Shown here: positions 1,387 to 40,160 of the stretch, one piece after another
How positions within the stretch are numbered: position 1 is the stretch's first letter
Layout: each line of letters opens with the position of its first letter
Source of the DNA: a virus
Lineage: Duplodnaviria > Heunggongvirae > Uroviricota > Caudoviricetes
DNA length: 64,000 nucleotides
Virus record (IMG/VR): IMGVR_UViG_3300045988_009603
Direction: 5' to 3' (one strand)
Translations under genes and position numbers: made by a program
Notes under the pieces: model-generated
What the model saw: the letters and a program-made list of their open reading frames with translations, nothing else
Told to the model about the DNA's origin: nothing
Databases searched by the model: none

Positions 1387-1687
1387 AGTTTACCTTCTCA
1401 GTTAGCTCGTATAAATCAACATGCTCAATACTATCAATGTTGATACCAATCTTTTTGAAGCGTTCTATCACTTCGTTGTCAGTCATCCATATCAGACACC
1501 AATGATTATGGATGGATTCTTCAAGAAGGTCAACACAATCTTTAAAAGTTTTTGTATCACTCCTTGTTCCGACTACTGCGATTGTTCCATACAACCACTT
1601 ACCATTACCATAAGATACTTGTGCTACGCCAACTTCTTTATCTTTCTCGTAGTAAACAGCTACAAAGTCTCTTCCATTAATTTGCAT
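1361..1687 (-). CDS. hypothetical protein
   Basis: 108 aa ORF, tightly packed in minus-strand operon. Confidence 0.35.
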   Translation of the reverse strand: MQINGRDFVAVYYEKDKEVGVAQVSYGNGKWLYGTIAVVGTRSDTKTFKDCVDLLEESIHNHWCLIWMTDNEVIERFKKIGINIDSIEHVDLYELTEKVNYESNTSQR

Positions 1688-1689
1688 AG

Positions 1690-1959
1690 TTACTTCCTCG
1701 TTTTAAGAACTGCTAAGATTTCTTTAGAATCTGGTAAGAACCATGTGTAGTGATTCTCTTTGATTTCTGGATGAGTGTCAACCTTTATTTTGCACTCTTT
1801 ACCAACATGCTTAAGCTGTGCTGTGACACCTTGCATAAAGATATGACACATCACATTATCCATAATGGTTGGTGAGAAATCAATTCGCATATAAGTTTCT
1901 TTTGGTCGTGGCAACAGTAAGTAACCTTCTACATAGAAAGTGTCTTGATTCTCTGTCAT
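1690..1959 (-). CDS. hypothetical protein
   Basis: 89 aa ORF, 3 nt after upstream gene. Confidence 0.35.
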   Translation of the reverse strand: MTENQDTFYVEGYLLLPRPKETYMRIDFSPTIMDNVMCHIFMQGVTAQLKHVGKECKIKVDTHPEIKENHYTWFLPDSKEILAVLKTRK

Positions 1960-3690: not shown

Positions 3691-4216
3691 GATTTACCTT
3701 AGAAATGTTTGTTGCAAATTCACATTGAGCAATGACTTTCATATTGTTATAGACATCTTGAGAGTATTTCTTAGCTTTAGGGATTTTGTACGAATACCCA
3801 GCATTATATGATGCTAAAACTTTTTGTAAAGTCTTCTTTGACTTTGGTTGACCGTGTACCTTAGTCCAAAATTCAAGCTCTTTGTGTGTTTCCTTTGCAG
3901 CATAGTCAAAATCTTTTAAGAGTTTCTTTTTAGCCACATTAGGACTAATTTTGTTACGCTTTACAACAGTCTTCAAGTGATTCTGGAAAATACCATAGTC
4001 ATGGGTCTTTTTATTCTCTACCTTCAGACCTAACTCTGACTCTTGTAAGGCTATAGCAGCTAGAGTAATACCCCAACCTTTACCCATATTATTCTCACCA
4101 TACTGGTAAGCTTTTAACATGTTTACTTTTTGGCTAATTGATAGCTCTGGGCAGTCAACTGCATAAGATAAGTGTGCTGTAAACATTAAGCACAAACCTA
4201 GAATCAACTTCTTCAT
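3668..4216 (-). CDS. lytic transglycosylase (SLT domain) with N-terminal signal sequence; candidate endolysin
   Basis: Hydrophobic N-terminus MKKLILGLCLMFTAHLSYA; SLT motifs QESELG (catalytic Glu-Ser), GIFQ and YNAGYSY. Confidence 0.55.
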   Translation of the reverse strand: MKKLILGLCLMFTAHLSYAVDCPELSISQKVNMLKAYQYGENNMGKGWGITLAAIALQESELGLKVENKKTHDYGIFQNHLKTVVKRNKISPNVAKKKLLKDFDYAAKETHKELEFWTKVHGQPKSKKTLQKVLASYNAGYSYKIPKAKKYSQDVYNNMKVIAQCEFATNISKVNHEKIKKV

Positions 4217-14738: not shown

Positions 14739-14759
14739 CTTGTCAAGTTTTACATAAGG

Positions 14760-15324: not shown

Positions 15325-16272
15325 CTACATAGAAACCCTATCCTTAATTTCTGCCATCTTAGCGTCATTCATTCGAGACTGACCTTTAATTTTTGTGAAT
15401 GACAAGTACCCGCACACCCTGTTAATCACAGAGATGTCATGTGAATGGCAAACCTCACATTCTTCAACATCAGCCTTTGGTCTGTTACCACAATGTTCAC
15501 AGATTGCTAAGTCAAAGTTAAGTCCCTGATAGAAGCCTTTCAACATCCCTCTTGTAATACAACTTTTAAGTGCTGGTAAGTTTTCTGGGTTAGCTACCCT
15601 TACATACTGGATTCTGCCACCTCTACAAATATGGAAGAATGGTTCTTCTAAGTCCTGCTTCTCAAATGGTGAGATATCTGCTGCAACATTCATATGAAAA
15701 CTGTTTGTAAAGTATTCCTTATCAGAAACACCTTTGATAACGCCAAACATATCTCTGAACTGTTTTAGTTGAGTCCCACAAAGTGATTCTGCTGGAGTAC
15801 CATATACCGCATATAAGAAGCCATCTTCATTCTTAAACTCTTCAGTTTTCATGTTAATGTATGCCAGAACATCGTATGCAAAACTACAGCTTCCAACTTC
15901 ATGAAGTCGTTTACCCTCAGCAAGAACAGATAACTCATCAAGCGCAGTAACACCAAAAGAAGCTGTGAAAGACTTCACAATATCCCAGCCAACCTTGTCA
16001 GTAGGTTTCTTAGTCCCTTTGTACAGACCACCTTGTGTGAATGCAAGAGGGTTAGAGCTTGCTGGCATATTAGCAATCATTTCGTAGCGTTTCTTGTGGA
16101 AGCTGCGAATCATCTCTAGGTACTTATCAAGCTCTTTCCAGAAATCTAAGCCATTCTCTTTAGAATACTGGTAAATCATTGGTAAGTTCAAAGATACAGC
16201 ACCAATGTTAGCACGACCTACATAAAACTCTTCACCATCTTCGTTATGGTATGGTGATAAAAACGCTCTACA
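15325..16272 (-). CDS. nrdD: anaerobic ribonucleoside-triphosphate reductase, exon 2
   Basis: Glycyl-radical motif RVCGYLS and C-terminal Zn site CEHCGN...CEVCH; frame is open upstream of the tracked start back to the proposed 3' splice site. Confidence 0.7.
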   Translation of the reverse strand, partial: CRAFLSPYHNEDGEEFYVGRANIGAVSLNLPMIYQYSKENGLDFWKELDKYLEMIRSFHKKRYEMIANMPASSNPLAFTQGGLYKGTKKPTDKVGWDIVKSFTASFGVTALDELSVLAEGKRLHEVGSCSFAYDVLAYINMKTEEFKNEDGFLYAVYGTPAESLCGTQLKQFRDMFGVIKGVSDKEYFTNSFHMNVAADISPFEKQDLEEPFFHICRGGRIQYVRVANPENLPALKSCITRGMLKGFYQGLNFDLAICEHCGNRPKADVEECEVCHSHDISVINRVCGYLSFTKIKGQSRMNDAKMAEIKDRVSM

Positions 16273-17014
16273 CTTGTTGTTCAGGTAAGTTCGCTACGCT
16301 TACCCCGCTTTATTCAAGCTGCTTACTGTCACCAGTAAGTCCAGACTATATCTTCTACTTATTTCTAAGTAGCGTACCATTTCGAGTCGCTTGACCCTAC
16401 ACCGCTACATTCATCACGGTTAGTCGTTTGGCATTTAGATGTACTCAAATTCATGTTCAAAGTTATTATATTCTTTTACACCCTTCAGTATTGAAGAGAT
16501 AGTCTTGCGATTATACCCAAGTATCTTGGATAACTCTCGTATCGAGTTCGCAACAATAACTTCTTTTGTTACTTTGTGTGTAGCCTTCACAGCATATGAA
16601 CGCTTACAAAACTTGTAGCAACCATTCTCATAACCTTCTTTAACATTCTCAGAATGAGTTCCCCATTCTAAGTTAGAAGCATGGTTATTCAGTTTGTTGT
16701 CATCTTTGTGTTTTACAATTGGAAGATTGTTCGGGTTAGGTACATATTTCTCAGCAACTAACCTATGAACATACATGTCACGATTCTTCTTACCGTAAAA
16801 CCTCACTTTCATATACCCAGTGTTGGATTTCCACTGCTTAAGTTCTACACCATTTTTCCTAAAGACTCTTCCATCTTCAGTAACATGATAATTTGGCATG
16901 TAATACTCCTATGTTATATAGTTTCTTACATCGTACATCATTTAGCACAGGATTGTCTACATCTGTAGAGTTTCCCTGTTTAGGCACGTTTTAGATGAGC
17001 TATAGAGCTTGTTA
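16273..17014 (-). mobile_element. group I intron in nrdD carrying an HNH endonuclease ORF
   Basis: Minus-strand P-like (AAACAGGGAAAC), Q-like (AATCCTGTG), S-like (AGATATAGTC) elements; P1 pairing exon ATGGGT with intron GCTCAT giving U.G at the 5' splice site; intron ends in G; spliced junction reads ...ISPMG|CRAFLSPY... Confidence 0.65.
16435..16899 (-). CDS. intron-encoded HNH-type homing endonuclease
   Basis: Motif HRLVAEKYVPNPNNLPIVKHKDDNKLNNHASNLEWGTHSEN; located between intron Q and R elements. Confidence 0.65.
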   Translation of the reverse strand: MPNYHVTEDGRVFRKNGVELKQWKSNTGYMKVRFYGKKNRDMYVHRLVAEKYVPNPNNLPIVKHKDDNKLNNHASNLEWGTHSENVKEGYENGCYKFCKRSYAVKATHKVTKEVIVANSIRELSKILGYNRKTISSILKGVKEYNNFEHEFEYI

Positions 17015-18211
17015 ACCCATCGGTGAAATTACCTTGCCAGAACGCTCAAAAGCCTCTGCTACAGCACCATGACCAGATACACTTAAGAAATCTGGATACA
17101 TAGCTTTAGAGCAACACTCTATAGCTTTTTCAAACAACCTTGCTTGGCATACATCAAGCTTATGTCTTGTCTCTTCATAGATATACACAAGTTTAGGGAA
17201 CACCACAGGTTTTTTGCTTTTACCTTGCCCATTCATTCTTACATTAAGAATTGTATTAGCAATCATAAACTGAAGACGGTTATCTTCATTGTGCATATCT
17301 GGTTCCAGCAAACCAAATGTCAGAGTAGTAAATGCAAAATCACCGCGACTGCAAGGAACAGTGTTAAGTTTCATTTCAAGAGATTGGAAACCCTGTGTTA
17401 ACTCATTCTGTAGTTGTTCCATTACGTAATTATAGTGTTGCTCTTTAGGGATTCCGTACTCTTCAGCTTTCTCTGAATGGTACACTAAAGACTTCTTAGC
17501 ATACGGTACAAGCACCTTATCAATCTCTGCTAAAGTAAATCCACCAAATTGCTGTGCAGTTGCTGAAAGAACTACATCACCAATAACCTGTAAGGCTGAC
17601 AGCACAGACTTTGGTTCACAGTATTCAATGCCAGACATTTCAAAGCCACCTTTTAGTACTTTACCAATGTCAAACAGGCAACAGTTGATACCACCAAAAA
17701 TTAGGTCTCTTAAGTCATGGATGTAGATAAATCCTTTTTCAATGGCTTCAAGTTCCTCTGGTGTTAAATGGTACTGTTTAAAGATTTCTTTAGTCAGGTA
17801 ACCACGAATAATTGAACCTTTTGTAGAAATTAAACTGCTGTCAAAGTTAGCATTTTCACGGTCACCTAAGAAGAGTGTGTCTTTAGTCTTCTGGTAAAGC
17901 TCATCCCAATTTTGAGCAACCTCTTTACGGTAATTTCTATATGTTGAGTAAGACTCATAAATCTCGTGATTTACTTCTGCCAAAGCACCCTCAACAATGC
18001 TGTGAATATCGTTTACTGAGATGAGCAAATTATTCTGCTTAGTGGACTTTACCAGAATCCTCATAAATGCTGATTCAAGAGCTTGGGTAACATCTGGTGG
18101 CAGTTCTTTATATCCAACCCTGTTAGCTGACTTAGTTACTGCTGCTAAAACTTTTTTGATATCCGGTTCTTCAAGTGAGCCATTCTTTTTAATAATTTGT
18201 ACTTTGTTCAT
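17015..18211 (-). CDS. nrdD: anaerobic ribonucleoside-triphosphate reductase, exon 1
   Basis: 399 aa ORF read as the N-terminal part of NrdD; its tracked stop lies inside the intron. Confidence 0.7.
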
Positions 18212-20028: not shown

Positions 20029-20083
20029 AGTTTCTCCAAAGTTAATTTTAGAGGGTCTTTTACGACCCTCATAGTTATTAAAA

Positions 20084-22318
20084 CTAAACACCACAACCCT
20101 CGCAATAAGCATCTTGCAGTGCAGATTTACCTACACCAATGCGACTGTTAAGGTAGTACATGGTTTTCATACCTACTGAGTTGGCATAAATCATGTACTT
20201 CAAAGCCTGAGCCAATGATACCTTCTTAGACTTTGCGTAGTCAACATAGAAGTCTGAAGAGATAGCTTGACCAGTGAACTTTTGAACAATTGCATAACAA
20301 TCAATCAGGTCAAAGGTGTCAATACCCCAAGCAATTTCATAGACATACTTCAACTCTTCATAATCTGGAACAATAAACAGTACGTTACCAGTTGCAGACT
20401 TTTTAGTTAAAATAAAGTCACGAATTGGATACAAGCCATTTGTCGTATTAGTTGCCAGTGAAGAACTCTCATTAGGCATGTAAGCCTCTAATACAGAGTT
20501 ACGGATTCCACCGTTTTCTTTAATACGTTGTGCTAAGTCATCCCAATCATAACGAAGTTTTGCATCATGCTTCTCATCAATCTTCTTGTTAGCTGTCTTC
20601 GGAGGAACCCAACCTTCAGGGTATTTAGTGAACTGCATATACTCAGGCACACCACGTTCTTTAGCAAGTCTTAAAGAAGCTTCGTGTAAGTAGTAAGAGT
20701 GCATTTCAGCAAGCTCATGAAGCTTTGTCTTACCCGCTCTTGAAGAATAGTTCACGTAGTTTTTCGCAAGGTAATGAGCCACATTTGTAAGGCCAATCCC
20801 AACAGAACGACGCTTCTGAACATGGTTACGCATCGACGGATACGGATAATCCATAAGGTCAATAACGGAGTCAACCATTGCAAGAGCATAATAAGCAACG
20901 TCAGCGTATTCATCTTCTGAAATTCTCCCTGCAACCAAACTAGCTAGGAAGCAAAGAGCTACCTCACCATCCTCTTTCACAGCGTCATCTCTGTAAAGGT
21001 CTGTCTCTTTCTCAAAGCCGTACACTGGCAACACAATTTCCATACAAAGGTTTGACATCTTCAAAGGCTCTTTAAATGGTGTATGTGTGTTTGCATTATT
21101 TGTGAAGAATGGATACACACGGCCTGTTGCATAACGCTGCTGGATAAACAGTTTAGCAATTTCACGAGCCTTCACACGTCTGTGTTTGACACCTGAATGT
21201 ACTGCATGACCAACTGCCATAGCAAACTCATCAGCAGATGCTGTGTAGAACATGTCATAGAGCTTTGGTGCATCCTTGTAAGAGAATAACAACCAGTCTG
21301 TATCATATTGAACACACTGCCAGAAGTAATCATTTGTACCAAATGAGTAGTCCATCTCGTTAATACGTTTCGAAGGAACCGTTGTAGGGTGCTTCAAACG
21401 CAGTAAATCTTCAATCTGTGGGTCTAGAGCAGTGTAGAAGTTGTTAGCTGAACCACCACGACTCTTCTGTTTGTTTGCCTCTACAGATGAGCGTACAAGC
21501 TTGTAATAAGGCAGTTTACCCATGTGCTCAATAGTATTTTGACGGATACCATCACCAATAGTACGAGTCTCCATCAGCATCCCAATGCCAGCTTGCTTTG
21601 TAGTCATATCATAAGCAACCTTTGCAGCAATACCGAGAGATTCAGCGGTATCATTCGCCTTAATCAAACAGCACGACGCATAACCTGATTTAGTAGCTCT
21701 TAAACCATTCAGATAAGGCGTAGGAGCGTTAATCTTCAGGTCAGATAGGTAAGTGTACAGCTTAATCACATCTTGCAGCCTACGGTGCTTTGGTTGCTTC
21801 TCAAAGGCTTTCATAGCCATACCCATAAACATAAATTGTGGTGACTCAAAAAGTCTTCCTGTTTTAATATCACGGATACCATACTTGTCTCTGAACTGTT
21901 TCAGGACTGCATAACCGTAAGAGATATCCTTTGAGTGCACAATGTACCCTTGCAGATATTCAAGCTCTTCCTGAGAATAGTCCATCTTCTCCCAAAGTCC
22001 TGCTCTCTCCATATTTTTAACGAAGGTAACCAGCGTAGGAACCTTAGTAAAGCCTCCAAAGGCTTCTTTGTAGATAATTCCCAGAAGTAGCCGTCCAGCC
22101 ATGTCTGAGTACTCTTGAGTTTGTTTATCAACACAAACATCAATCATGGCTTGGTGCATCTCTTTTGTAGTGCAACCTTCATAGACACGTTTCATAGCTT
22201 CCATAGTGACTTCTGACCAGATAATCCCACGCTTATCTGCCCATGATGCCCACTTATTCAATCTTTCTGGGTCAAAGCTTACTACTGTACCATTTGATTT
22301 TTTAATTGTCTTAATCAT
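20084..22318 (-). CDS. nrdA: ribonucleotide reductase large subunit
   Basis: 744 aa; C-terminal CEGCGV tail typical of class I R1; start within the N-terminal ATP-cone region. Confidence 0.8.
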   Translation of the reverse strand: MIKTIKKSNGTVVSFDPERLNKWASWADKRGIIWSEVTMEAMKRVYEGCTTKEMHQAMIDVCVDKQTQEYSDMAGRLLLGIIYKEAFGGFTKVPTLVTFVKNMERAGLWEKMDYSQEELEYLQGYIVHSKDISYGYAVLKQFRDKYGIRDIKTGRLFESPQFMFMGMAMKAFEKQPKHRRLQDVIKLYTYLSDLKINAPTPYLNGLRATKSGYASCCLIKANDTAESLGIAAKVAYDMTTKQAGIGMLMETRTIGDGIRQNTIEHMGKLPYYKLVRSSVEANKQKSRGGSANNFYTALDPQIEDLLRLKHPTTVPSKRINEMDYSFGTNDYFWQCVQYDTDWLLFSYKDAPKLYDMFYTASADEFAMAVGHAVHSGVKHRRVKAREIAKLFIQQRYATGRVYPFFTNNANTHTPFKEPLKMSNLCMEIVLPVYGFEKETDLYRDDAVKEDGEVALCFLASLVAGRISEDEYADVAYYALAMVDSVIDLMDYPYPSMRNHVQKRRSVGIGLTNVAHYLAKNYVNYSSRAGKTKLHELAEMHSYYLHEASLRLAKERGVPEYMQFTKYPEGWVPPKTANKKIDEKHDAKLRYDWDDLAQRIKENGGIRNSVLEAYMPNESSSLATNTTNGLYPIRDFILTKKSATGNVLFIVPDYEELKYVYEIAWGIDTFDLIDCYAIVQKFTGQAISSDFYVDYAKSKKVSLAQALKYMIYANSVGMKTMYYLNSRIGVGKSALQDAYCEGCGV

Positions 22319-26922: not shown

Positions 26923-28914
26923 TCACTCAGTTTCGAACGGGCAGTCATCTGCATCCTCACTTAATACAGGTGGAATCGTTGAGCTTTGACGCTGCTCTTC
27001 AGTATAAACTTCACCAGTCTCACGGTCAAACACTTCATCCTCATAATGAGGTAAAGAGTCATCGTAATGGTCTTCAGCTTCACCAATACCAAACTGCTGG
27101 CGAATATTTTCTGCTGCACCGTCAATATCAACACCACATCCAGAAGCTTTGATAAGACGTCCTGTATCTGGATTGTACCAAGTATGACCAGCAATACCTG
27201 TTGACTTACCATGACGACGACACTTAGTTAACTTGATTTTTGTCAAGTTTTTCTTAACAGGGTCTGGGTCAACCTTGTTACGCATTAACAGAATGTTGTT
27301 CATAGAAATCTGGAAATACGCACCAGAACCTTTAATATCCTCTTCAGAGATATCTCCACCTTCAGAGTTGGCTTTCTGACCACCTGCACTCTTACGAACG
27401 TGACATACGTTTACCTGTGCATACTGGTAGCGTTTGCAACGACGCAATAGCTCAGACAAAACTTCCTCTTCATCCGTATCTGAACGTGACAGAGCCAACG
27501 TAATAGGGTCAAGAATAATAATCTTGCAATCTAAGCTGTTAACAAGATAGTCAACAAACTCCAGCAAATTATCTTGGTCAATTGCCCCTTGATGGTCTAC
27601 GATATGGATACGACGACCTTTAGATAGCTCTGCGTGTGCTCCCTTTAGTTCATCCCAATCCCGTTCATCATAAGGAATCTCAGAAATCTGCTTGCTCAGG
27701 TGGATTGCACAGAGCATTTCCATAAGTTCTTCGTAAGTATCTTCTACAGGAATTACACCGATATTATAATCAGTTTCTTTCCAAGCTGAATAAATCATCT
27801 CACGAGTGTAAGCTGACTTACCTACTGAAGATGGTGCTGCAATAGTTGTAATCTCACCTAAACCATAACCACCATAAGTCAGCCTGTTCAAATCTCCGAA
27901 AGACTCTGGGAAAGGAATCAATGGAATCTGACCACGATTCTTCATCGCCTCAAAACCATCTGCAAAGTTCTTGATACCAGCAGGGCAGTAACGAGGTGCG
28001 TTGTAGATACGCTGTTTAAATCCTTCCAGAACTGTGTCTTTCTCTTTATAGAACTTTGTCCACCATTCATTAAGGTCTTTTACACCTTCTGGATACTGGA
28101 ATAAACGAACCTTCTCAATAGGTAGGATGCCAGCGGCCTCTTTGGTAGCTTTAGCACCTGCTTCATCGTTATCAAAGCACAAGTAAATCTCATCAAATGA
28201 TGTGATGTACTGATAGTTGTCTTTGATAGACTTAATGTTTGCACCTGATGGAACAGATACGTGACAGTAATTCTTACGACGAGACTTATCTTTAATTGCC
28301 AGAGAAGTCATGTAGATTGCTGTAGCACATTCCATCTCACCTTCCCAGATGAATAAACGGTTACCACCTTCTGGAGCAATCCATGAACCGAACATTGCCA
28401 GTTCACCTTTAATATCCCCAACACCACCTGAAAAGTCTTTTAGCTTACCACGTAGGTGTTCTTTTGGATGGTCTTCTGGGTAACGGTGACGAACACGGTA
28501 ACCAACATGTTCTAGTTTGCCATCTTCATTACGTTTGTAAGTTGGATAGAAATGTGCATCAATTTCACCATCACTATCAATGTCAACCTTGATACCTAAA
28601 CGTTCAAGGACTTTTGCAGGGATTTTCCTGTCTTTCAAGTCCATTGCTTCTAGGTTTTCTTTTACATCATCTAAATCCATTCCACGGAAAGTACGGTTTT
28701 TATTATCTGAACCAGTAGAATAAGTGCTCACGATTTGTCCTTTATCAAAATCCCACTCTGGGAAACCTTTGTTACAGCTAAAGCAAGTCATCGAATAAGA
28801 ATCATCGTCATGATGGTAGATTGAACCAGCATCTGATGAACCACAACGTGGACATGCACAATGACCAACAAACTGACCAGCCTCTTTCAATTTACGACCT
28901 TTAGACATTAGCAC
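26923..28914 (-). CDS. DNA primase/helicase (zinc-ribbon primase plus DnaB-like helicase)
   Basis: N-terminal CPRCGS...CFSCNKG zinc ribbon; Walker A GLGEITTIAAPSSVGKSAYT; 663 aa. Confidence 0.75.
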   Translation of the reverse strand: MLMSKGRKLKEAGQFVGHCACPRCGSSDAGSIYHHDDDSYSMTCFSCNKGFPEWDFDKGQIVSTYSTGSDNKNRTFRGMDLDDVKENLEAMDLKDRKIPAKVLERLGIKVDIDSDGEIDAHFYPTYKRNEDGKLEHVGYRVRHRYPEDHPKEHLRGKLKDFSGGVGDIKGELAMFGSWIAPEGGNRLFIWEGEMECATAIYMTSLAIKDKSRRKNYCHVSVPSGANIKSIKDNYQYITSFDEIYLCFDNDEAGAKATKEAAGILPIEKVRLFQYPEGVKDLNEWWTKFYKEKDTVLEGFKQRIYNAPRYCPAGIKNFADGFEAMKNRGQIPLIPFPESFGDLNRLTYGGYGLGEITTIAAPSSVGKSAYTREMIYSAWKETDYNIGVIPVEDTYEELMEMLCAIHLSKQISEIPYDERDWDELKGAHAELSKGRRIHIVDHQGAIDQDNLLEFVDYLVNSLDCKIIILDPITLALSRSDTDEEEVLSELLRRCKRYQYAQVNVCHVRKSAGGQKANSEGGDISEEDIKGSGAYFQISMNNILLMRNKVDPDPVKKNLTKIKLTKCRRHGKSTGIAGHTWYNPDTGRLIKASGCGVDIDGAAENIRQQFGIGEAEDHYDDSLPHYEDEVFDRETGEVYTEEQRQSSTIPPVLSEDADDCPFETE

Positions 28915-30728: not shown

Positions 30729-31151
30729 TTATTTCTCTCTCAGTTGGTTAAGTTTCTTTCTAGAACATTTTAAGTTTTCTGATGAAGAAAAGTCAAGTGT
30801 CTTTTCAGAACGTGGATAGTAATGTCTATCCCAAGAAGTTTCAACATCGTTAATCAGTGACGCTAGATTACACAGGTCTGTACCACTTTGCAACCTCTTT
30901 TTAAGAGAATCTAGTAAAGCAACTGTATCTTTAGCTTTACGCCTTGCTGTAGCAACATCTTTCATATGCTCAAATACAGAGCATTTTAAGTCATCTTCAT
31001 AGTTTTCAGACAACTCTATTTCATGTTGTATATCAACCATCCTCCTGTGATGGTGAGCATATTCCCGTTGAGCAGCAATGTCAAGTTCTTCCAACTTCTG
31101 CAAAGCTCTAACAAAGTCAGCTATGTCTGGGTGAACAAACATTTTCTGCAT
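30729..31151 (-). CDS. hypothetical protein (first gene of minus-strand operon)
   Basis: 140 aa; adjacent to divergent intergenic region. Confidence 0.35.
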   Translation of the reverse strand: MQKMFVHPDIADFVRALQKLEELDIAAQREYAHHHRRMVDIQHEIELSENYEDDLKCSVFEHMKDVATARRKAKDTVALLDSLKKRLQSGTDLCNLASLINDVETSWDRHYYPRSEKTLDFSSSENLKCSRKKLNQLREK

Positions 31152-31407
31152 GTAAGCCTCTTTTAAGTAACTATTAAGTTTTAATCTTTTATCTTAACGT
31201 ATTCTATACGTTATACTTTAAAGCTTTTTAAAAGCTATTAAATAATCTTTTAAGAGTTTTAAAGTAACTGTATAGTTAAACTGTTAAGTAACCTTTTAAG
31301 TAAAAACCCACTTCGCAAAGATTAACACCTTGTCAAGTACATTGTCAACTTGCTTTTTATAATTTTTTGCAGTAATGTATGAGGTTAATGAATTAGAGGG
31401 AGTACAA

Positions 31408-33550
31408 ATGGAAAACGTAGATTTTAAAAACTTACACTTAGTTGGTGATACAGAAACTGATGGTTTACTCCTTGAGTTCACTAAAGTCCACGTCATGGCT
31501 TTCGCAGACTATAAATCTGACGATGAAGAGCCACCTGTATGGGTCTTTACAGATGAGCCTATCCTCGGTCACAAGTATACCAAGTACATTAAAGGTGGTT
31601 TGCGTGAAGGTATTGAGTTTGCGTTAAAGGCAAAACGGCTTTGCATCCATAATGGTCTGGGGTATGACTGGTGGGTTTTCAATCACATTGCACCTGATTT
31701 GTGGAACTTTGATAATCCAAAGTGTAAGCCGTGGAGTAATTTCTTTCAGGATTCTCTTATCCAGTCTCGTGTTCAGTGGATGGATAGACCAACTCCAAAA
31801 GGCTATAAAGGTGCTCATGGCTTGGCAGCATGGGGTGCTCGTGTTGGTGTACGTAAACCAGAGATTGAACATTGGGGTGTGTGGAATGCAGAAATCTTCA
31901 CTCGTGTTGTAGAGGATATCCGTATTAACGCCAAAACTAAACGAGCACTGGATAATGAATATCTCAAGTTAAAGAAGTGTGGTATAGACACTTATGAAAC
32001 CTATATGCGAGCTAAAGAGACATCTTTCTGGATGAGTCAACAAGCTATTAATGGTTGGAAAGCTGATAAGGAGCTTATGGAGTTCCATGTAAAGGAACTT
32101 GACAAGTTGACTAATGAGCTTGCTTCAGAAGTTGAACCACACCTTCCACCAACTATTAAGACCAAAGGTAAAGTCACTGGAGAAGAGTTTGCAAAAGCTT
32201 GGAATGAGTATGTTGAAGCGTTTGGTCATGCAGATGGACTGAAAAGAATTACCAAGTACCCTAAGACAAAGTATCGTCAGCAGGTACGTAACGGTGAGAT
32301 GCAGACATATGAAATCAAGCCATTTGGTAAGCCAACTACAAAGATTTTTAACATTGAAAAGCGGAATTGCTATACACCAACCAACACTGTAACTGGCGAA
32401 GAGTACAAAGAAGGTTTTGTAGCAATGAAGGATGCTCGTGCAATTTGCAATGAGTTGAATGCAAAGATTGGTAAGAAATGCAAAGACTGGAAGCCAGTAA
32501 AAACAGTCAAAACTGTGAAGTACTATAACAGTCACGTTGTTAACCACTTTGAACTTGAGTCAAGTCGCTACACAGGATTGATTGATGCACCATATACACC
32601 AATTGAGTTTGAAGTTTCTCGTATGACTCAGGTAGCAGTTGTTAAAGACTACTTGAAATCAGTTGGTTGGATTCCAGATGACTGGAACTACAAGAAAGAC
32701 TCAGACGGTCGCCCTGTCAAAGTTTGTCGTTTCAAAGACAATAAAAAGATGATTACAAAGCATCCTAAGTGGCAGGAGATGGTTGAGCGTTGTGGATTGA
32801 GCTATGTTGAACATGAAGGTGTACAGTACATTGAGCATAACTGGTCTGTGAAGAAGTACACAGATTTGCTTGAACCTTGTCTGATTAGGACTTCACCAAA
32901 ACTTACTGAATCATCTTATGATACGATTGAAGGTGAGCTTGGACAGAAGATTGCTAAGTACTACACTTTGATGCACCGACGCAGAACTATTGAGAACTCA
33001 AAGGATGATGAAAAAGGTTGGTTGAACCAGATTCGTCCTGATGGTCGCCTTAGTGCTGGCGCAATGGTGTTTGGTACTTCAACTGGACGTATGACACAAT
33101 ATGGTATTGTAAACGTACCGTCTGGCGCTGCTGTCTATGGAGCACCCATGAGGGAAGTTTGGACTTGTGAAGAGGGTACTAATATTGTTTCAGCCGACAT
33201 GAATAGCGCCCAACTTGTGCTACTGTGTAACTTTATGGGTGATAAAGATTTCACTAAAGCGGTGACAGAGGGTAAAGAAGAGGTTGAGTTTGTTAAACAA
33301 GATGATGGTAGATACTATTGCAAACATTTTGACCAGTATCTAAACCCAGCTATTGACAAGTATTTACATTATGATTCGGAAAATGACTTATACGTGGTGT
33401 ACTCAGGGACTGATGCACATACTTTAAATAGTATCTACTTCAGTCTTAATAAAGAGGAAGACATCTTGACGTGTCGAGCTACTCAGGATACAAATCTTCT
33501 TCAAGAAATTAGTAAAGGTCGTAAGAAAGCCAAAAATGGCATTTATGCGT
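31408..33550 (+). CDS. DNA polymerase (family A), exon 1
   Basis: GAGGGAG RBS before ATG 31408; 3'-5' exo motif VGDTETDGL; motif A IVSADMNSAQL; start of motif B RKKAKNGIYA; exon end set by intron P1 pairing. Confidence 0.75.
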
Positions 33551-34354
33551 CAGTGGCGCATGTAAAACGTTGTGAATTGCTGGAAGCCTAAGTCTGTAAA
33601 GATATGGTAATCAGCAGCGAAGTCTCTGTTAGGACTCCTAAAACAAAGGAGAGAGAGACAATGGCAGGTTACGAAGAGAGATTATGCACTGAGTGTGGCA
33701 CGGAGTTTAAACCATACCAATACAATCAGAAACGGTGCAGAAGCTGTGTATTAAAATTTGACAGAAGGGCAGAACACAGGGTTCTTACTAAGAAATGCCC
33801 TAGCTGCGAGAAGGTGTTCATGCCGAGAACAGCAAGGCAAGTTTATTGCTCTTCACATTGCGGTGAGAAAGGTAGAGTTAAAAATTACTACCTAAGAACA
33901 TATGGCTTGGAAAGGGAAGAGGTTGAAGCTCTACTCCGCAACTGTGATTACAAATGTCAAATTTGTGGCGGTGAAGGTTTTATCATGAATGGTTCACGAC
34001 ACAAGGCTAAACTTGTTGTTGACCATGACCACAAAACCGGAAAGGTAAGAGGTATGCTATGCCACAATTGCAACAGAGCTTTGGGGTTGCTTGCAGATAG
34101 CGTTGATAATATGCAAAGAGCAATTGACTACCTAAGCAAATAATATAATTGTAGAGATTCCTAACAGAGAAACGTTCAGAGACTATCGAAAAGCATACTT
34201 AACGTATGAACTGAGTAGAGTAGGGTGGTAAGCTAATGACCATCCCCAAGTGCAACGGTAGCACCAATGCTACGTGATATAGTCCGACACTCCGTAGAAA
34301 TGCGGAGAAGTTCATAAGAGAACTGGTACACCTTGCGAGTGTATTGACCAGATG
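33551..34354 (+). mobile_element. group I intron in DNA polymerase gene with HNH endonuclease ORF
   Basis: P (GAATTGCTGGAA 33574-85), Q (AATCAGCAGC 33609-18), R (GTTCAGAGACTA 34174-85), S (GATATAGTCC 34276-85); P1 exon ATGCGT pairs intron GCGCAT; ends in G 34354; exon lengths sum to 2700 nt. Confidence 0.75.
33661..34143 (+). CDS. intron-encoded HNH endonuclease
   Basis: AAGGAGAGAG RBS; Cys-rich N-terminus; VVDHDHKTGKVRGMLCHNCNRALG HNH core. Confidence 0.7.
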   Translation: MAGYEERLCTECGTEFKPYQYNQKRCRSCVLKFDRRAEHRVLTKKCPSCEKVFMPRTARQVYCSSHCGEKGRVKNYYLRTYGLEREEVEALLRNCDYKCQICGGEGFIMNGSRHKAKLVVDHDHKTGKVRGMLCHNCNRALGLLADSVDNMQRAIDYLSK

Positions 34355-34911
34355 TATTGTTCGGGGCTGGCGATGAGAAATTTGCTAAGACGATTAAAGC
34401 ATCTACAACTGAGGAAGGTGCTTTAACTAAGCAAACATACTTTGTACGCCTCCCTAAAATTAAGAAGTTGATAGATGATTTAGAAGCAGACTTCAAAGCC
34501 ACTAAGAAGGCTCTTGAAGAGGTATTTGGTAAGACTGCTGCAATCTCTAAAGGGGGGTTTGTAAAGGTTGCTGGAGCTTGGTTGTGGTGCAAATCTCCAC
34601 ATAAGTTATTGAATTATTTGCTCATGGGTTCGGAAAGTCAGGTTCAGAATGAAGCCATCAACCTTGCTTGTAGAAGAACTTGTGAAGAAGGTCTTACAAA
34701 GTTGAATGGTCGAAAACCAGCTATTGGTGCTAGATTGCTTTTGGCATATCACGATGAGAATAGTTGGGAGTGTCCAGAAGACATGACGCAGGATGTTAAA
34801 GCAGTAATTGACTGGATGTATGGTCAAGCATCAAGAAATTTAGGGCTTAAGGAGGAAACTCTTGTAACTGGCACTGGTAAAGTTGGTAAAAATTGGCTTG
34901 AGGTACACTGA
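34355..34911 (+). CDS. DNA polymerase (family A), exon 2
   Basis: Completes motif B (LFGAGDEKFAKTI) and carries motif C YHDE; tracked ORF at 34357 begins on a TTG, not an independent gene. Confidence 0.75.
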
Positions 34912-37458: not shown

Positions 37459-37486
37459 TTGACATAGAAAATTTGGTGAGTATACT
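37459..37486 (+). promoter_or_regulatory. sigma70-like promoter TTGACA-N16-TATACT, -10 embedded in inverted repeat GGTGAGTA / TACTCACC
   Basis: Perfect -35, near-consensus -10; 8 bp inverted repeat arms at 37476-37483 and 37506-37513. Confidence 0.5.
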
Positions 37487-37517
37487 GAGCAGCATAAACC
37501 AACAGGTACTCACCAGC

Positions 37518-37667
37518 ATCACTTAAGAGTCTTTCTAAGAGGGTTTTTAAGTGATGTGTAGCTCGGTCAGGTATGGTGCGGTGGTGTAAGGTGGTGTCAG
37601 GTGTAGTATGGTGCGGTGATGTGAGGTATGGGTAGTTAGTCTCAGCTACATTAAAATGAGACTTACC
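37518..37667 (+). repeat. composite repeat unit copy 1 (T-rich palindromic box, C-depleted GGT-rich tract, conserved-loop hairpin)
   Basis: ATCACTTAA...TTAAGTGAT box 37518-37555; GGT-rich tract 37564-37635; hairpin AGTCTCA-GCTACATTAAAA-TGAGACT 37631-37667. Confidence 0.6.
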
Positions 37668-37670
37668 TTT

Positions 37671-37786
37671 TTAAAAGGCCTTTTAAGAGGGTCTTTTAAT
37701 GAGGTGGGGTGGTGTAAGGTGGTGTAAGGTCTGGTTCGGTGTGTCGCGGTATGGGTGGATGGTAGTAGCCACGTTAAAAATCTACC
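37671..37786 (+). repeat. composite repeat unit copy 2
   Basis: Palindrome TTAAAAGGCCTTTTAA, box CCTTTTAAGAGGGTCTTTTAATG, GGT-rich tract, hairpin GGTAG-TAGCCACGTTAAAAAT-CTACC. Confidence 0.6.
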
Positions 37787-37793
37787 AAGTTTC

Positions 37794-37821
37794 TAAAGAG
37801 TCTTCTGTTGAGGGTTCTTTA
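37794..37821 (+). repeat. partial third copy of T-rich box directly upstream of gene 37863
   Basis: TAAAGAGTCTTCTGTTGAGGGTTCTTTA resembles TTAAGAGTCTTTCTAAGAGGGTTTTTAA. Confidence 0.45.
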
Positions 37822-37844
37822 CAAACAACTTAACAATCAACTAA

Positions 37845-38450
<606 letters not shown>

Positions 38451-38452
38451 TT

Positions 38453-38893
38453 ATGAATACAAAAGCATTAGCAGCAAAGTTTAGTTACGGTGACACTGTA
38501 TCACATTCTGAGATGGACACCTTCTTAGGTATTGTGAAGCCAACTTATCAAGGTGACATTGTTAAGTACGAAGATGAAATGAAGGCTTATGCGCTTACAC
38601 GTCTAAACCGACTTGAAAAGTTTATTGAAAAACTTCTTAAAGAAGAGAAGATTTATCTGGTTGCTTCAATGGGTGTTGGTTATCGTGTGGTTGAACCTAA
38701 GCATCAAGCAACTATTGCAAAACGCAAAATGTCTGGTAAGATTGGTCGTGCTTTAAAGCAAGCCACTCAAGCGATTGAGAATGTGAACACTATGGCACTT
38801 AGTCATCAAGAACGTTCACGACTGATTGAACAGCAAAATCACTTAGCTGCTATGAAAGCTAATATTAACAAGCAACGCAGAAAACCTTTCTAA
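38453..38893 (+). CDS. hypothetical protein (cassette gene 2)
   Basis: 146 aa; charged/helical, basic C-terminus; no recognised motif. Confidence 0.5.
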   Translation: MNTKALAAKFSYGDTVSHSEMDTFLGIVKPTYQGDIVKYEDEMKAYALTRLNRLEKFIEKLLKEEKIYLVASMGVGYRVVEPKHQATIAKRKMSGKIGRALKQATQAIENVNTMALSHQERSRLIEQQNHLAAMKANINKQRRKPF

Positions 38894-38904
38894 GTTGACT
38901 AGGT

Positions 38905-38927
38905 AGCCTCTTCGGAGGCTCCTTTTT
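38905..38927 (+). terminator. intrinsic terminator (AGCCTC-TTCG-GAGGCT plus T-run)
   Basis: 6 bp stem, UUCG loop, CCTTTTT tail directly after cassette gene 2. Confidence 0.6.
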
Positions 38928-39041
38928 AAAAGGTCTTTAAACAGGGTCTTTTAACAAGGCTTAGCTTGGTTAGGTATGGTAAGGTGGTGTTTGGTGTTGT
39001 AAGGTATGGGTAGTTAATCGGAGCTACATAAAAATTCGATT
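38928..39041 (+). repeat. composite repeat unit copy 3
   Basis: Box AAAAGGTCTTTAAACAGGGTCTTTTAAC, GGT-rich tract 38961-39013, hairpin AATCG-GAGCTACATAAAAATT-CGATT 39016-39041. Confidence 0.6.
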
Positions 39042-39043
39042 AC

Positions 39044-39178
39044 ATCACTTAAGAGTCTTTTAAGAGGGTTTTTAAGTGAGGTGTGGCACGGTAATGTTAG
39101 GTAGGGTCAGGTCAGGTCAGGTCAGGTGAGGTAAGGTAATGTATGGAAGGATGGCAGTAGCCTTATAAAAAATCTGCC
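39044..39178 (+). repeat. composite repeat unit copy 4, includes (GGTNA)7 tandem pentamers
   Basis: Box ATCACTTAAGAGTCTTTTAAGAGGGTTTTTAAGTGA near-identical to copy 1; GGTCA x4 + GGTGA + GGTAA x2 at 39105-39139; hairpin GGCAG-TAGCCTTATAAAAAAT-CTGCC 39153-39178. Confidence 0.6.
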
Positions 39179-39182
39179 AAAT

Positions 39183-39232
39183 AAGCTATAAAATCTGTTG
39201 ACAAGTCAGGTGTTATAGCTTATTTTTATACT
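39183..39232 (+). promoter_or_regulatory. candidate promoter (TTGACA at 39198) flanked by inverted repeat AAGCTATAA / TTATAGCTT
   Basis: Perfect -35 hexamer; weak -10 candidates TATTTT/TATACT; 9 bp inverted repeat arms 39183-39191 and 39215-39223. Confidence 0.35.
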
Positions 39233-39655: not shown

Positions 39656-39868
39656 ATGGCTCTTAAAAAGTTACATCCCAGAAGCGGTTATGGTAAGATA
39701 ATTGATGATACAGACGGCTTTACAGTCTTTACAGTTATCTGTCAAGATGATTCACAGATTGAAAAGGCTCTTGACGATTATCTTAACGATGAACGTGAAA
39801 AGGTTAGGGCTACTAACATAGACTCATTAATTGATACTTCACGCAAACGGAAGAAGAAAGATGAATGA
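39656..39868 (+). CDS. hypothetical protein
   Basis: 70 aa ORF. Confidence 0.35.
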   Translation: MALKKLHPRSGYGKIIDDTDGFTVFTVICQDDSQIEKALDDYLNDEREKVRATNIDSLIDTSRKRKKKDE

Positions 39869-40160
39869 GGTTTTTGACCCTTATGCCCCACAAGATGATT
39901 GGGAGGCTGATAGAGAGGTTGAAATGGAGAGTTATATTTGTCCAATGGATGTAGACGAAATGAGGGATTTCGTTGCACATCGTTTTAAGAGAGAGATTAA
40001 GTCCAGAGGTCTTTCTCAAGAGCAAGTTGCGAAAATTTGTGGTATCTCTCAGGCTCGTGTATCCAACATAATCAATCTCACTGGTAATGTCTCTCTTGAG
40101 TTTATGTTGGAAGTATGTGAAAAATTTGGTGTTAACTTCAATTTAAGGTTGGCAGATTAA
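39861..40160 (+). CDS. helix-turn-helix (XRE-like) DNA-binding protein
   Basis: HTH segment LSQEQVAKICGISQARVSNIINL; start at ATG 39861 overlapping upstream stop. Confidence 0.5.
   Translation: MNEVFDPYAPQDDWEADREVEMESYICPMDVDEMRDFVAHRFKREIKSRGLSQEQVAKICGISQARVSNIINLTGNVSLEFMLEVCEKFGVNFNLRLAD

Follow-up and report, generated by a model that had tools for sequence, protein, structure and literature searches.

Upstream of the DNA polymerase gene of Felix O1-type phages lies a short non-coding spacer crowded with recurring short words. The question that it raises is whether these words merely reflect base composition or are sites that some factor reads and, if so, what that factor would control. 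Felix O1 is a classic phage for the typing of Salmonella, and biocontrol makes wide use of its relatives. In the Felix O1 genome, the 96|97 spacer was presumed to be a divergent early promoter site, yet no host-like promoter was found in it; temporal regulation was stated to be unknown, and no proteins that modify polymerase specificity were reported (Whichard et al., 2010, PMC3185647). Our search of the literature on Ounavirinae found no study of start sites, transcriptomes, binding, origins or genome ends.

Location and composition of the spacer

The stretch of DNA analyzed here (IMG/VR record IMGVR_UViG_3300045988_009603; 64,000 nucleotides, hereafter the window) belongs to a Felixounavirus and is ~98–99% identical to Salmonella phages ph2-2 and BPS17W1. 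The first-pass annotation had described a divergent control region between two operon blocks, a view that the open reading frame map and the annotation of relatives support, and every sequence feature that it listed was recovered in its place. The left edge of the 256-bp spacer is the start codon (CAT, 31149–31151) of a minus-strand gene encoding a protein of 140 aa, and its right end is exact because the polymerase ATG is at 31408 (Table 1). From this edge the leftward operon runs through the 140-aa gene, a dNMP kinase and the primase-helicase, and onward. Toprim and DnaB_C are fused in one protein encoded at 26923–28914, a T7-like primase-helicase, and the polymerase belongs to family A according to the annotation of relatives. 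The spacer is AT-rich, as had been claimed, with a GC content of 26.2% compared with 39.0% for the whole window, and positions 31152–31300 are the 150 bp of lowest GC content anywhere in it.

Table 1. Coordinates of the spacer, its neighbors and the elements discussed in the text.
Feature	Position	Strand	Remarks
Non-coding spacer	31152–31407	.	Flanked by the leftward operon for replication and nucleotide metabolism and by the DNA polymerase gene; open reading frame map, annotated relatives
First gene of the leftward operon	30729–31151	-	140 aa, PHROG 4039; directly downstream of the array
Ribosome-binding site of the 140-aa gene, AAGAGG	31157–31162	-	Sequence; overlaps the first CTTTTAAG word
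Array of seven co-oriented CTNTWWAG words	31160–31300	+	Starts at 31160, 31171, 31216, 31247, 31268, 31281 and 31293
Perfect palindrome TAACGTAT-tct-ATACGTTA	31195–31213	.	Genome-unique
Perfect palindrome AGCTTTT-t-AAAAGCT	31222–31236	.	Sequence
Predicted P_L -10, TAATCT (TAnnnT)	31319–31324	-	18 bp from the -35; 3/6 match
Second perfect TTGACA	31331–31336	-	Inside the P_L -35/-10 spacer; without a usable -10 downstream
Predicted P_L -35, TTGACA (6/6)	31343–31348	-	Invariant in alignment A1 (9 genomes)
Candidate polymerase promoter P_R	31350–31378	+	-35 TTGCTT 31350–31355, 17 bp, -10 TAATGT 31373–31378
Ribosome-binding site of the polymerase gene, AGAGGGAG	31395–31402	+	Invariant in alignment A1
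GC-rich hairpin GAGGGTC-TTTTAC-GACCCTC	20051–20070	.	Spacer after nrdA; judged outside the system

Predicted promoters

The hexamers of the predicted leftward promoter P_L together match the sigma-70 consensus at 9 of 12 positions, and its -10 has A2 and T6. T1, A2, T4, C5 and T6 of this element are conserved in alignments A1 and A2, and position 3 is variable. From the geometry of the promoter, leftward transcription would start near 31312–31313. The direct repeat reported just upstream of the polymerase gene is indeed present, as TTGTCAAGTACATTGTCAAC at 31330–31349 on the plus strand (TTGTCAA twice, with a period of 12 bp and a gap of 5 bp), but the first-pass annotation had overlooked that its two units, read on the minus strand, are both perfect -35 hexamers. 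One match to it occurs in the window compared with 0.02 expected; a scan of viral contigs for the double TTGTCAA repeat returned mostly chance matches, as is the case for a pattern of such length.

Rightward transcription would rely on the candidate promoter P_R, whose match to the consensus is weak (6/12) and whose start is predicted near 31385. Its TTGCTTTTT and TA..GT blocks are invariant in alignment A1, with variable sequence between them. An alternative rightward promoter, AGTACA-16 bp-TATAAT with its -10 at 31358–31363, is found in Felixounavirus sequences only. Neither predicted promoter was called above chance by a consensus promoter scan, and both -10 elements are weak.

Two other readings of these elements were rejected. 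A MotA box, (a/t)(a/t)(a/t)TGCTT(t/c)A, is centered at -30 and lies 11–13 bp upstream of the -10. The TGCTT at 31351–31355 belongs to a box 15 bp from the candidate -10 at 31373, which is the normal position of a -35, and a MotA-type middle promoter was discarded. A pho box for PhoB consists of two CTGTCAT heptamers 4 bp apart (11-bp period), 10 bp upstream of a -10. Here the heptamers are TTGTCAA with a 5-bp gap and a 12–13-bp period, and a TATAAT 10 bp downstream is seen only in Felixounavirus sequences, without conservation.

The word array

The seven words of the array include the forms CTTTTAAG (at 31160, 31247 and 31293), CTGTTAAG and CTTTAAAG; the last four units are in tandem, 11–13 bp apart, and a near-word, TTTTAAAG, lies within the array at 31257. 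This cluster is the densest in the window, with seven words in 150 bp of the spacer compared with three in the next best interval and a background of 0.28. Their phasing at a period of 11 bp (R = 0.85, P ~0.03) is marginal. TTAAGTAAC, with its sole window copies at 31163 and 31284, is not significantly enriched (2 vs. 1.12 expected).

The recurrence of the words is real and exceeds what AT-richness explains. CTTTTAAG occurs 19 times in the window compared with 4.84 ± 2.34 expected, and none of 100 shuffles reached 19. In BPS17W1, a complete relative, 17 of its 34 copies are intergenic, while intergenic DNA makes up 12.9% of the genome, and Markov models of order 1 to order 4 predict 1.7–4.5 intergenic copies. 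Likewise, there are 95 intergenic CTNTWWAG sites compared with 21.5 ± 4.8 expected; this motif was derived post hoc from the spacer, and only the other genomes provide tests of it that are free of bias. The first-pass annotation had asked whether the motif frequency goes beyond the expectation for an AT-rich genome, and the words do exceed composition-matched nulls.

It could be argued that the words have no specific reader and arise as a by-product of AT-richness, of the contexts of ribosome-binding sites and terminators (TAAGAGG; T-runs) and of oligonucleotide bias, with the spacer working as AT-rich, bendable DNA flanking a promoter. Several copies of CTTTTAAG do overlap ribosome-binding sites or terminator tails. 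Coding DNA is also enriched in words, 1.5- to 2.2-fold (118 vs. 53–81 expected), and this excess is modest; therefore, part of the signal is genome-wide. The AA/TT periodicity of the word block, which is unremarkable (66th–94th percentile), fits such a reading as well. However, the intergenic excess survives when the null is a Markov model of order 3 or order 4 built from the intergenic DNA itself, the clusters occur at three homologous loci and not in all AT-rich spacers, and the pattern recurs in genomes of 44–45% GC. Moreover, most substitutions remain within the word family and the arrays are ordered in orientation, so that we regard an origin of the words without any reader as very unlikely. 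The same periodicity values led us to reject intrinsic curvature caused by phased A-tracts, and a genome-wide polarity of the words of the Chi or KOPS kind was unconvincing.

Conservation and sister modules

Across the three genera of alignment A1, the mean column identity of the spacer is 89%. The spacer is 80–87% identical to those of the other genera, whereas the third codon positions of the flanking genes are only 53–67% identical, and we therefore conclude that this non-coding DNA is under purifying selection. Where the words differ between genera, five of the six varying forms still belong to the CTNTWWAG family. An example of such variants is CTTTTAAG in Felixounavirus and CTATTAAG in Mooglevirus. 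The 31195–31213 palindrome has two compensatory positions that keep its symmetry (C-G to T-A in four sequences, T-A to A-T in two). The spacer is a strongly conserved, putative two-way promoter region with an ordered array of short words.

Judged from sequence comparison, a module consisting of predicted promoter and leader can be defined that is present three times per genome. In complete relatives, the paralogous sites are S2, a second divergent spacer, and S3, beside a gene-free junction, both outside the window; nhmmer retrieves the module paralogues with E = 6e-8 and 1e-7 in BPS17W1, and with E = 3e-8 and 2e-4 in the Citrobacter phage Mordin. The P_L core reads TTGACA-17-TAGGCT in S2 and TTGACA-17-TAATGT in S3. 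In the more distant Pectobacterium phage Wc4-1 it has a 17-bp spacing and TAGGCT, and in the Erwinia phage phiEa104 18 bp and TACATT, so that neither the module copies nor the distant relatives have lost a TAnnnT -10. In the spacer analyzed here (S1) and in S2, the TTGTCAA pair has a period of 12 bp, compared with 13 bp in S3; Wc4-1 has a TTGACC on the opposite strand as its second element, which gives back-to-back -35 hexamers. S2 also shares the CTTWWAAGAGGC arrangement of ribosome-binding site and word, and has TCTTAAAAG-g-CTTTTAAGA as the counterpart of the 31222–31236 palindrome. The third copy in Mordin consists of TTGACA-17-TAACTT, a leader of ~150 nt with four words, and the GGAG-ATG of gp029. 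A core without words, CTTGACAAGGTG...TAGGCT, was found in the window at 14747–14712 on the minus strand, ~25 nt before a GGAG-ATG gene start.

Word clusters are limited to the three homologous loci, and many intergenic regions of 60–520 bp hold zero to two sites. The homologous loci of phiEa104, Wc4-1 and Mordin rank at or near the top in word density, and the two divergent spacers of phiEa104 are the top two windows genome-wide. The gene-free junction of 1.4–2 kb is filled by two opposed word arrays. The words are consistently oriented in these copies, with ratios of 3:1 in S2 and ~9:1 in the array on the S3 side; for the Wc4-1 and phiEa104 spacers the ratio is 8:1. The word pattern is also seen in genomes of 44–45% GC.

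Leader RNA or replication origin

All seven words and the two palindromes fall in the predicted ~160-nt leader of P_L. The words could thus act in RNA, as a 5' leader of P_L-type transcripts that is bound by a protein or carries signals for processing, stability or translation, for example as an AU-rich stretch to which ribosomal protein S1 or RNase E would bind, or in antitermination of the nut/put kind past internal terminators. The words of each module are found past the predicted leftward start and in one orientation relative to it, all six non-palindromic window words would read CUWWANAG in the transcript, and the opposed arrays of the junction would both be read in the same sense if transcribed convergently. 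The two longest operons begin with these modules and are rich in intrinsic terminators, the read-through of which lacks an explanation (PMC3185647), and the family is annotated with RegB-like and Ro60-like RNA-binding proteins (annotations; bioRxiv 10.1101/2024.10.10.617714). Nevertheless, DNA sites arranged as direct repeats typically show such a uniform orientation just as well, and the assignment to a leader hangs on predicted starts. The RNAalifold covariation term is negligible (-0.08 kcal/mol), with 2 of 50 pairs compensatory, both in the 7-bp palindrome; structure z-scores are modest (-1.6 and -2.8), and a search of Rfam left the spacer without a match at E ≤ 1 and the window without one at the gathering score. 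Structure in the leader RNA was accordingly rejected as the main explanation, and we consider a role of the words in RNA improbable.

The position of the spacer between the primase-helicase operon and the polymerase gene, together with its composition, suggests another function. At a transcription-activated replication origin, P_L would fire into the most easily melted DNA of the genome, and the transcript or the opened duplex would allow the T7-like primase-helicase and polymerase to start; the words would then either come with the unwinding element or serve as iteron-like sites, and S2 and S3 would be secondary origins. The T7 primary origin consists of tandem promoters and an AT-rich block, and T4 oriF and oriG consist of a promoter and an unwinding element. 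The word block (21–22% GC) is the most AT-rich 150-bp stretch of the window and, genome-wide, of BPS17W1, phiEa104, Wc4-1 and Mordin, a predicted promoter with two tandem -35 elements lies immediately upstream of it, the replisome is T7-like, and the cumulative GC skew has its minimum at the spacer. However, the skew reverts at ~43 kb, precisely where gene orientation flips; it therefore tracks the coding strand and provides no independent signal of an origin. The spacer contains no DnaA boxes, GATC clusters or IHF sites, and no initiator-like protein is found among the scanned conserved proteins of unknown function. In length (8 nt) and spacing (11–13 bp) the repeats differ from iterons of 17–22 bp, an unwinding element needs no specific, oriented words conserved throughout a family, and the same module heads ordinary genes in Mordin. 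An origin at this site is thus unlikely.

Candidate readers of the words

No binding factor for the words could be named among the proteins examined. The only recognizable regulator, a Cro/C1-type HTH protein (39861–40160), was rejected as their reader because phiEa104 and Wc4-1 keep the words without having a homologue; it could instead bind the Felix/Moogle-specific palindrome. Ten conserved proteins of unknown function and the 140-aa protein were scanned, and no nucleic-acid-binding domain was detected in them. The 140-aa protein is encoded next to the array in phiEa104 and Wc4-1 as well (47–50% identity), and has no Pfam match and no solved relative. Its AlphaFold model is a long helical hairpin (pLDDT 72.5) with generic coiled-coil matches only (E ≥ 0.2). 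With respect to host factors, sites for DnaA, IHF, CRP, Lrp and Dam (GATC) were absent, those for DnaA and IHF when searched with up to one mismatch to a relaxed consensus, and a single degenerate Fis-like match in the spacer is regarded as chance.

From the recurrence of similar words, the first-pass annotation had proposed that one factor recognizes sites at several loci. The words do recur, which suggests a common reader, but the other partners that it named, i.e. the TCTTTTAAGAG-type boxes of the GGT-rich repeats (37.5 and 39.0 kb) and the AGAGGGTCTTTTA hairpin after nrdA, do not appear to belong with them. TCTTTTAAGAG is found exactly at 3912, 31246 and 39056, hence in both the spacer and a box, and with up to one mismatch it occurs seven times compared with 2.85 expected (reached in 1 of 100 shuffles); by eye, the similarity extends to TCTTTTAAGAG(GG)TTTTWAAGTRA. 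However, each GGT box holds two to three family words, which is not exceptional because many other places have at least as many, the spacer profile matches them in the window only with E = 1.1–4.2, and the homologous region of BPS17W1 has no significant match. The hairpin shares the 13-mer AGAGGGTCTTTTA (20050 and 37686) with one box but not with the spacer, from which its GAGGGTC motif is absent. With up to two mismatches, this 13-mer occurs five times compared with 2.3 expected (reached in 8 of 100 shuffles), and a simple size calculation predicts tens of exact 13-mer pairs by chance in 64 kb. A terminator scan calls the hairpin (7-bp stem, five GC pairs) on the plus strand only, with the tail ATAGTTATTA, whereas the neighboring genes are encoded on the minus strand, on which the stem is followed by UAAAAUUAAC. 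That the same factor also reads the GGT boxes and the hairpin is hardly credible.

We consider it probable on balance that the spacer is a divergent early control region with two sigma-70 promoters and with words for one putative trans-acting factor. Two back-to-back promoters for the host sigma-70 polymerase would be centered on the invariant TTGTCAA repeats, with TTGACA-18 bp-TAATCT starting the leftward operon near 31312 and the weaker TTGCTT-17 bp-TAATGT starting the polymerase operon near 31385. The 150-bp word block (22% GC) would then lie directly downstream of the leftward start and upstream of the polymerase promoter. Its words may be recognition sites for the one factor, which would modulate or time transcription at these two promoters and in the two sister modules. 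While the non-randomness, conservation and paralogy of the module and its promoter-like geometry are observed, we infer where transcription starts, that such a factor exists and of what kind it is, and in which direction it acts. For the factor itself, a protein that binds to DNA in tandem is a more likely candidate than an RNA-binding one.

Comparison with known systems

The spacer belongs to a known kind of element, the phage divergent control region. In phi29 of Bacillus, multiple p4 sites and a p6 nucleoprotein complex make up such a region, and phage factors set the timing. The A2b/A2c-A3 region of phi29 resembles the spacer in being ~200–250 bp long, AT-rich and situated between oppositely transcribed operons that include replication genes, with back-to-back promoters for the host polymerase (predicted here) and several repeated short sites. 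In contrast to phi29, neither a p4 or p6 homologue nor a named reader was found here, the repeats are 8-nt direct repeats 11–13 bp apart instead of inverted repeats 15 bp apart, and the same words also fill the gene-free junction.

The early promoters of T5, T7 (A1–A3) and T4 are strong sigma-70 promoters used by the unmodified host polymerase. P_L shares with them a perfect TTGACA, a spacing of 17–18 bp, TAnnnT and its place at the head of an operon, but its -10 is weak (3/6), a second TTGACA lies inside its spacer, and its predicted leader is long and rich in words, whereas theirs is a short untranslated region. Similarly, T7 and T4 replication origins share with the spacer the arrangement of promoters (predicted ones here) that lead straight into the genome's most AT-rich DNA, and the phage has a T7-type primase-helicase and a family A polymerase. 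They differ from it in that here three modules exist per genome, and conserved specific words are not a feature of those origins.

With respect to the array itself, in plasmid R1 parC the par promoter is flanked by two sets of 11-bp repeats, five in each, and met boxes are tandem 8-bp sites bound by MetJ. As in these systems, short words here follow each other head to tail about one helical turn apart and next to a promoter, and the gene-free junction has two opposed arrays. However, no ribbon-helix-helix, ParR-like or other binder was found here, the repeats are degenerate and partly irregular in spacing, and a virulent phage has no obvious need for partition. The lambda nutL and nutR sites and HK022 put are cis elements in the leaders of two divergent early operons. 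Like the words, they follow directly after early promoters that head long, terminator-rich operons, but here no conserved stem-loop, boxA/boxB-like structure or N-like protein was found, and the elements would be on only one of the two divergent transcripts.

Implications

For both promoters, predictions are now available that can be tested at base resolution, in a spacer where the genome paper found no promoter (PMC3185647). The word family also predicts control regions in distant genera. The timing of expression, and possibly the start of replication, in this phage family thereby becomes directly testable, and defined regulatory parts are provided for the engineering of Felix O1-type phages. 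A new kind of biology would be involved only if the reader of the words proves unusual.

A broader proposal, which is possible but which we regard as doubtful, is that the Ounavirinae share an undescribed cis-element system of oriented 8-nt words (CTGTTAAG/CTTTTAAG/CTTTAAAG) that follow a special class of early promoters (double TTGACA) in both divergent regions, that also fill the gene-free junction as two opposed arrays, and that are read by a conserved protein without a recognizable nucleic-acid-binding domain. If this is true, such a system could supply the temporal switch that is missing in these phages, which lack factors that modify the polymerase, or, alternatively, it could form a polar barrier or an origin-terminus system that organizes transcription and replication.

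Conservation of the divergent spacer

The window shares 98–99% identity with Felix O1-like Salmonella and Escherichia phages (genus Felixounavirus) and 77–85% with more diverged relatives in Mooglevirus and Suspvirus. The 256-bp spacer is flanked by a leftward block, encoding a 140-aa protein, a 270-aa 'minor tail' PHROG, a dNMP kinase and a Toprim/DnaB-type primase-helicase, and by the rightward DNA polymerase gene, whose ATG shows that the spacer end in the first-pass annotation was exact. In Felix O1, the spacer between genes 96 and 97 is the expected start of divergent early transcription, no host-like promoter was recognisable there, and temporal regulation was stated to be unknown (Whichard et al., 2010; PMC3185647). 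Our literature search turned up no subsequent work on transcription starts, transcriptomes, replication origins or genome ends in this subfamily.

An alignment of nine genomes from three genera gave 89% mean column identity across the spacer. Pairwise identity to the window was 80–87% for the spacer and 81–85% for its word half, compared with 53–67% at third codon positions of both flanking genes, which indicates that purifying selection acts on this non-coding DNA. Two perfect palindromes are present, the one at 31195–31213 having no other copy in the genome.

The polymerase gene is split in the window and uninterrupted (2700 nt) in the Mooglevirus/Suspvirus relatives. The interruption has the appearance of an inserted homing endonuclease, and there was no match to a group I intron model.

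Feature coordinates (bare positions refer to the window)
Feature	Position	Strand	Remark
140-aa gene	30729–31151	minus	PHROG 4039
Palindrome TAACGTAT-tct-ATACGTTA	31195–31213		symmetry kept by compensatory changes at two positions
Palindrome AGCTTTT-t-AAAAGCT	31222–31236		perfect
Predicted P_L −10, TAATCT (TAnnnT)	31324–31319	minus	18 bp after −35
Predicted P_L −35, upstream hexamer	31348–31343	minus
Proposed polymerase −35, TTGCTT	31350–31355
Proposed polymerase −10, TAATGT	31373–31378		17 bp after TTGCTT
Polymerase gene, split	31408–34911		ATG at 31408, AGAGGGAG upstream; parts 31408–33591, 34357–34911
Endonuclease VII/HNH ORF	33604–34143		between polymerase parts
Word-free promoter core	14747–14712	minus
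nrdA hairpin	20051–20070
Region of nrdA stop and next ATG	20029–20090	minus	includes ~55-nt spacer
GGT-rich units with boxes	37500–37830, 38900–39210
ORFs between GGT-rich units	37848–38450, 38453–38893
Predicted promoter TTGACA-17-TATACT	37459–37487		near-consensus
Cro/C1-type HTH gene	39861–40160		99 aa
S2	BPS17W1 79240–79385		in second divergent spacer; E = 6e-8
S3	BPS17W1 1581–1691		edge of ~2 kb gene-free region; E = 1e-7
Gene-free junction, 1.4–2 kb	BPS17W1 87337..1693 (L010 1–1693 + L011 37337–37609)		between convergent transcription units
Same, relatives	phiEa104 16472–17900; Wc4-1 90818..188; Mordin 15881–17376
gp112	L011 28855–29226		BPS17W1
gp111	L011 27358–28773		BPS17W1

A word family enriched in non-coding DNA

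All sequence features previously listed for the spacer are present in the window. The spacer has three copies of CTTTTAAG and the window 19 (4.8 expected); the TTGTCAA double repeat is found once in the window (0.02 expected), while the window counts of TTAAGTAAC and TCTTTTAAGAG are not significant and marginal, respectively. The alignment showed that the spacer words are members of a degenerate family, CTNTWWAG, whose non-palindromic copies in the spacer all share a single orientation. Positions 31151–31300 form the outstanding cluster of the window: this 150-bp stretch has 7 sites, compared with 3 in the runner-up and a background of 0.28. Six forms vary at the words that are not identical between genera, and five of them still belong to the family (for example, CTTTTAAG changing to CTGTTAAG, CTATTAAG or CTTTATAG, and CTGTTAAG to CTGTAAAG or CTATAAAG).

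To tell word excess apart from AT-richness, we used the complete, annotated relative BPS17W1. There, 17 of 34 CTTTTAAG copies are intergenic (12.9% of the genome), where Markov models of order 1 to 4, fitted to its intergenic DNA, predict 1.7–4.5. For CTNTWWAG, 95 sites are intergenic, compared with an expectation of 21.5 ± 4.8 and no more than 40 in any of 200 simulations. The family is also over-represented in genes, by 1.5–2.2 times (118 coding sites against 53 with codon shuffling or 69–81 with order-3 to order-5 Markov models), as is CTTTTAAG (17 against 4.5–7.6). No convincing genome-wide strand polarity of the words was found.

Since CTNTWWAG was defined after inspection of the spacer, the decisive tests are those in other genomes. 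The Erwinia phage phiEa104, with 44% GC and a polymerase N-terminus 64% identical, has its two highest word densities genome-wide at its two divergent spacers; in the Pectobacterium phage Wc4-1, words are most concentrated in the gene-free junction and the polymerase spacer; and in the Citrobacter phage Mordin, the polymerase spacer (7 sites) ranks ahead of the second divergent spacer (5) and the gene-free junction. A purely compositional origin of the words is therefore unlikely, as the excess holds against the nulls, the clusters are locus-specific and the pattern is replicated at 44–45% GC.

Predicted promoters

A simple consensus promoter scan of the spacer returned nothing above chance. 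The direct repeat that had been noted upstream of the polymerase start allows a promoter reading that was missed: the invariant TTGTCAAGTnnnTTGTCAAC reads GTTGACAAnnnACTTGACAA on the minus strand, giving two perfect −35 hexamers. The TTGACA-18 bp-TAATCT geometry places the predicted start of the leftward promoter P_L near 31312, with a leader of ~160 nt that would contain all seven words. Within TAATCT, T1, A2, T4, C5 and T6 are conserved across the aligned genomes and position 3 is variable. The geometry recurs in the paralogous modules S2 (TTGACA-17-TAGGCT) and S3 (TTGACA-17-TAATGT), in Wc4-1 (17 bp, TAGGCT), in phiEa104 (18 bp, TACATT) and in the third module copy of Mordin. The module core CTTGACAAGGTG...TAGGCT also occurs once without a word array, where a gene with a GGAG-ATG start follows after ~25 nt; this copy probably serves as a regular promoter of that class.

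For the polymerase we propose TTGCTT and TAATGT, blocks that are invariant in the alignment around a variable intervening sequence; the alternative AGTACA-16-TATAAT (−10 at 31358) is found in Felixounavirus sequences only. In Wc4-1, TTGACC on the opposite strand replaces the second repeat, resulting in classic back-to-back −35 elements. Both spacer promoters are inferences from sequence.

Module copies and partner loci

The spacer-alignment profile detected two further significant copies in BPS17W1, S2 and S3, both oriented as the spacer. Mordin has three copies, the third being a complete promoter-leader-gene unit. In the BPS17W1 gene-free region the longest ORF is ≤42 aa, and 36 word sites form two opposed arrays, mostly CTTAACAG / CTGTTAAG, with orientation flipping near position 940; phiEa104 likewise has opposed arrays. 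The junctions of all four genomes are dense in the family, mainly in these two forms; they may hold the genome ends or a pac site, act as a terminus or give rise to a non-coding transcript. As S2, S3 and this region lie outside the window, they were not visible to the first-pass annotation.

The S2-headed leftward operon of BPS17W1 starts with a DUF5681 protein (gp112) and a Ro60/vWA-like 'RNA-binding protein' (gp111), followed by a tRNA cluster and then terminase and structural genes. The PhageMaP preprint raises the possibility that some of the tRNA-like genes encode Y-RNAs that partner the Ro-like protein (bioRxiv 10.1101/2024.10.10.617714).

Of the first-pass interpretation, the control region (a conserved non-coding spacer with promoter-like geometry) and the words in excess of composition-matched nulls were borne out, but the partner loci were not. 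The nrdA hairpin is real and has nothing in common with the spacer, sharing only a 13-mer, with a weak match statistic, with one GGT-repeat box; the boxes carry 2–3 family words each and are undetected by the spacer profile. For these reasons both were left out of the system.

The GC-rich hairpin lies between nrdA and the next gene, which overlap in the BPS17W1 annotation; the start codon annotated there may be wrong, or an indel may be present. The GGT-rich non-coding units (GGTGGTGTAA, GGTCA and similar periods) had no Rfam match and bracket two ORFs without a Pfam match. BPS17W1 lacks these ORFs and has one 420-nt spacer at that place. A predicted promoter is directed into the first unit.

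Possible function of the words

Our favoured reading is that the words are tandem binding sites on the DNA, through which a protein would regulate the leftward/polymerase promoter pair. This is suggested by the tandem part being spaced at one turn (11–13 bp), by substitutions that keep words in the family, by the opposed arrays, by a modest excess genome-wide and by the absence of RNA structure. RNA elements within the leader would also fit, given the consistent word orientation relative to the predicted start in all modules, although the leader shows no covariation and matched no Rfam family. Likewise, part of a transcription-activated origin would fit the T7-like replisome and the word block being the most AT-rich 150 bp genome-wide in all four complete genomes examined. 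However, the GC-skew minimum is accounted for by gene orientation, DnaA, IHF and GATC sites are absent, and an unwinding element leaves specific, oriented words unexplained.

As to a factor that would read the words, a Cro/C1-type HTH protein is the one regulator recognisable in the window; since neither phiEa104 nor Wc4-1 has a homologue, it is excluded as the conserved reader. After each array, the first gene is kept across lineages, namely the 140-aa protein (spacer) and the DUF5681 protein (S2); no nucleic-acid-binding domain was found in these or in nine other conserved unknowns. Conservation of the 140-aa protein extends across the subfamily and includes the invariant motifs HRRMVDVQHEIELSE and RRKAKDT; its model, a long antiparallel helical hairpin, gave only generic matches.

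Taken together, the spacer adds a new, well-defined case to a known kind of element, the divergent control regions of phages that carry repeated cis-words, and its analysis makes the question of temporal regulation left open in 2010 directly testable.
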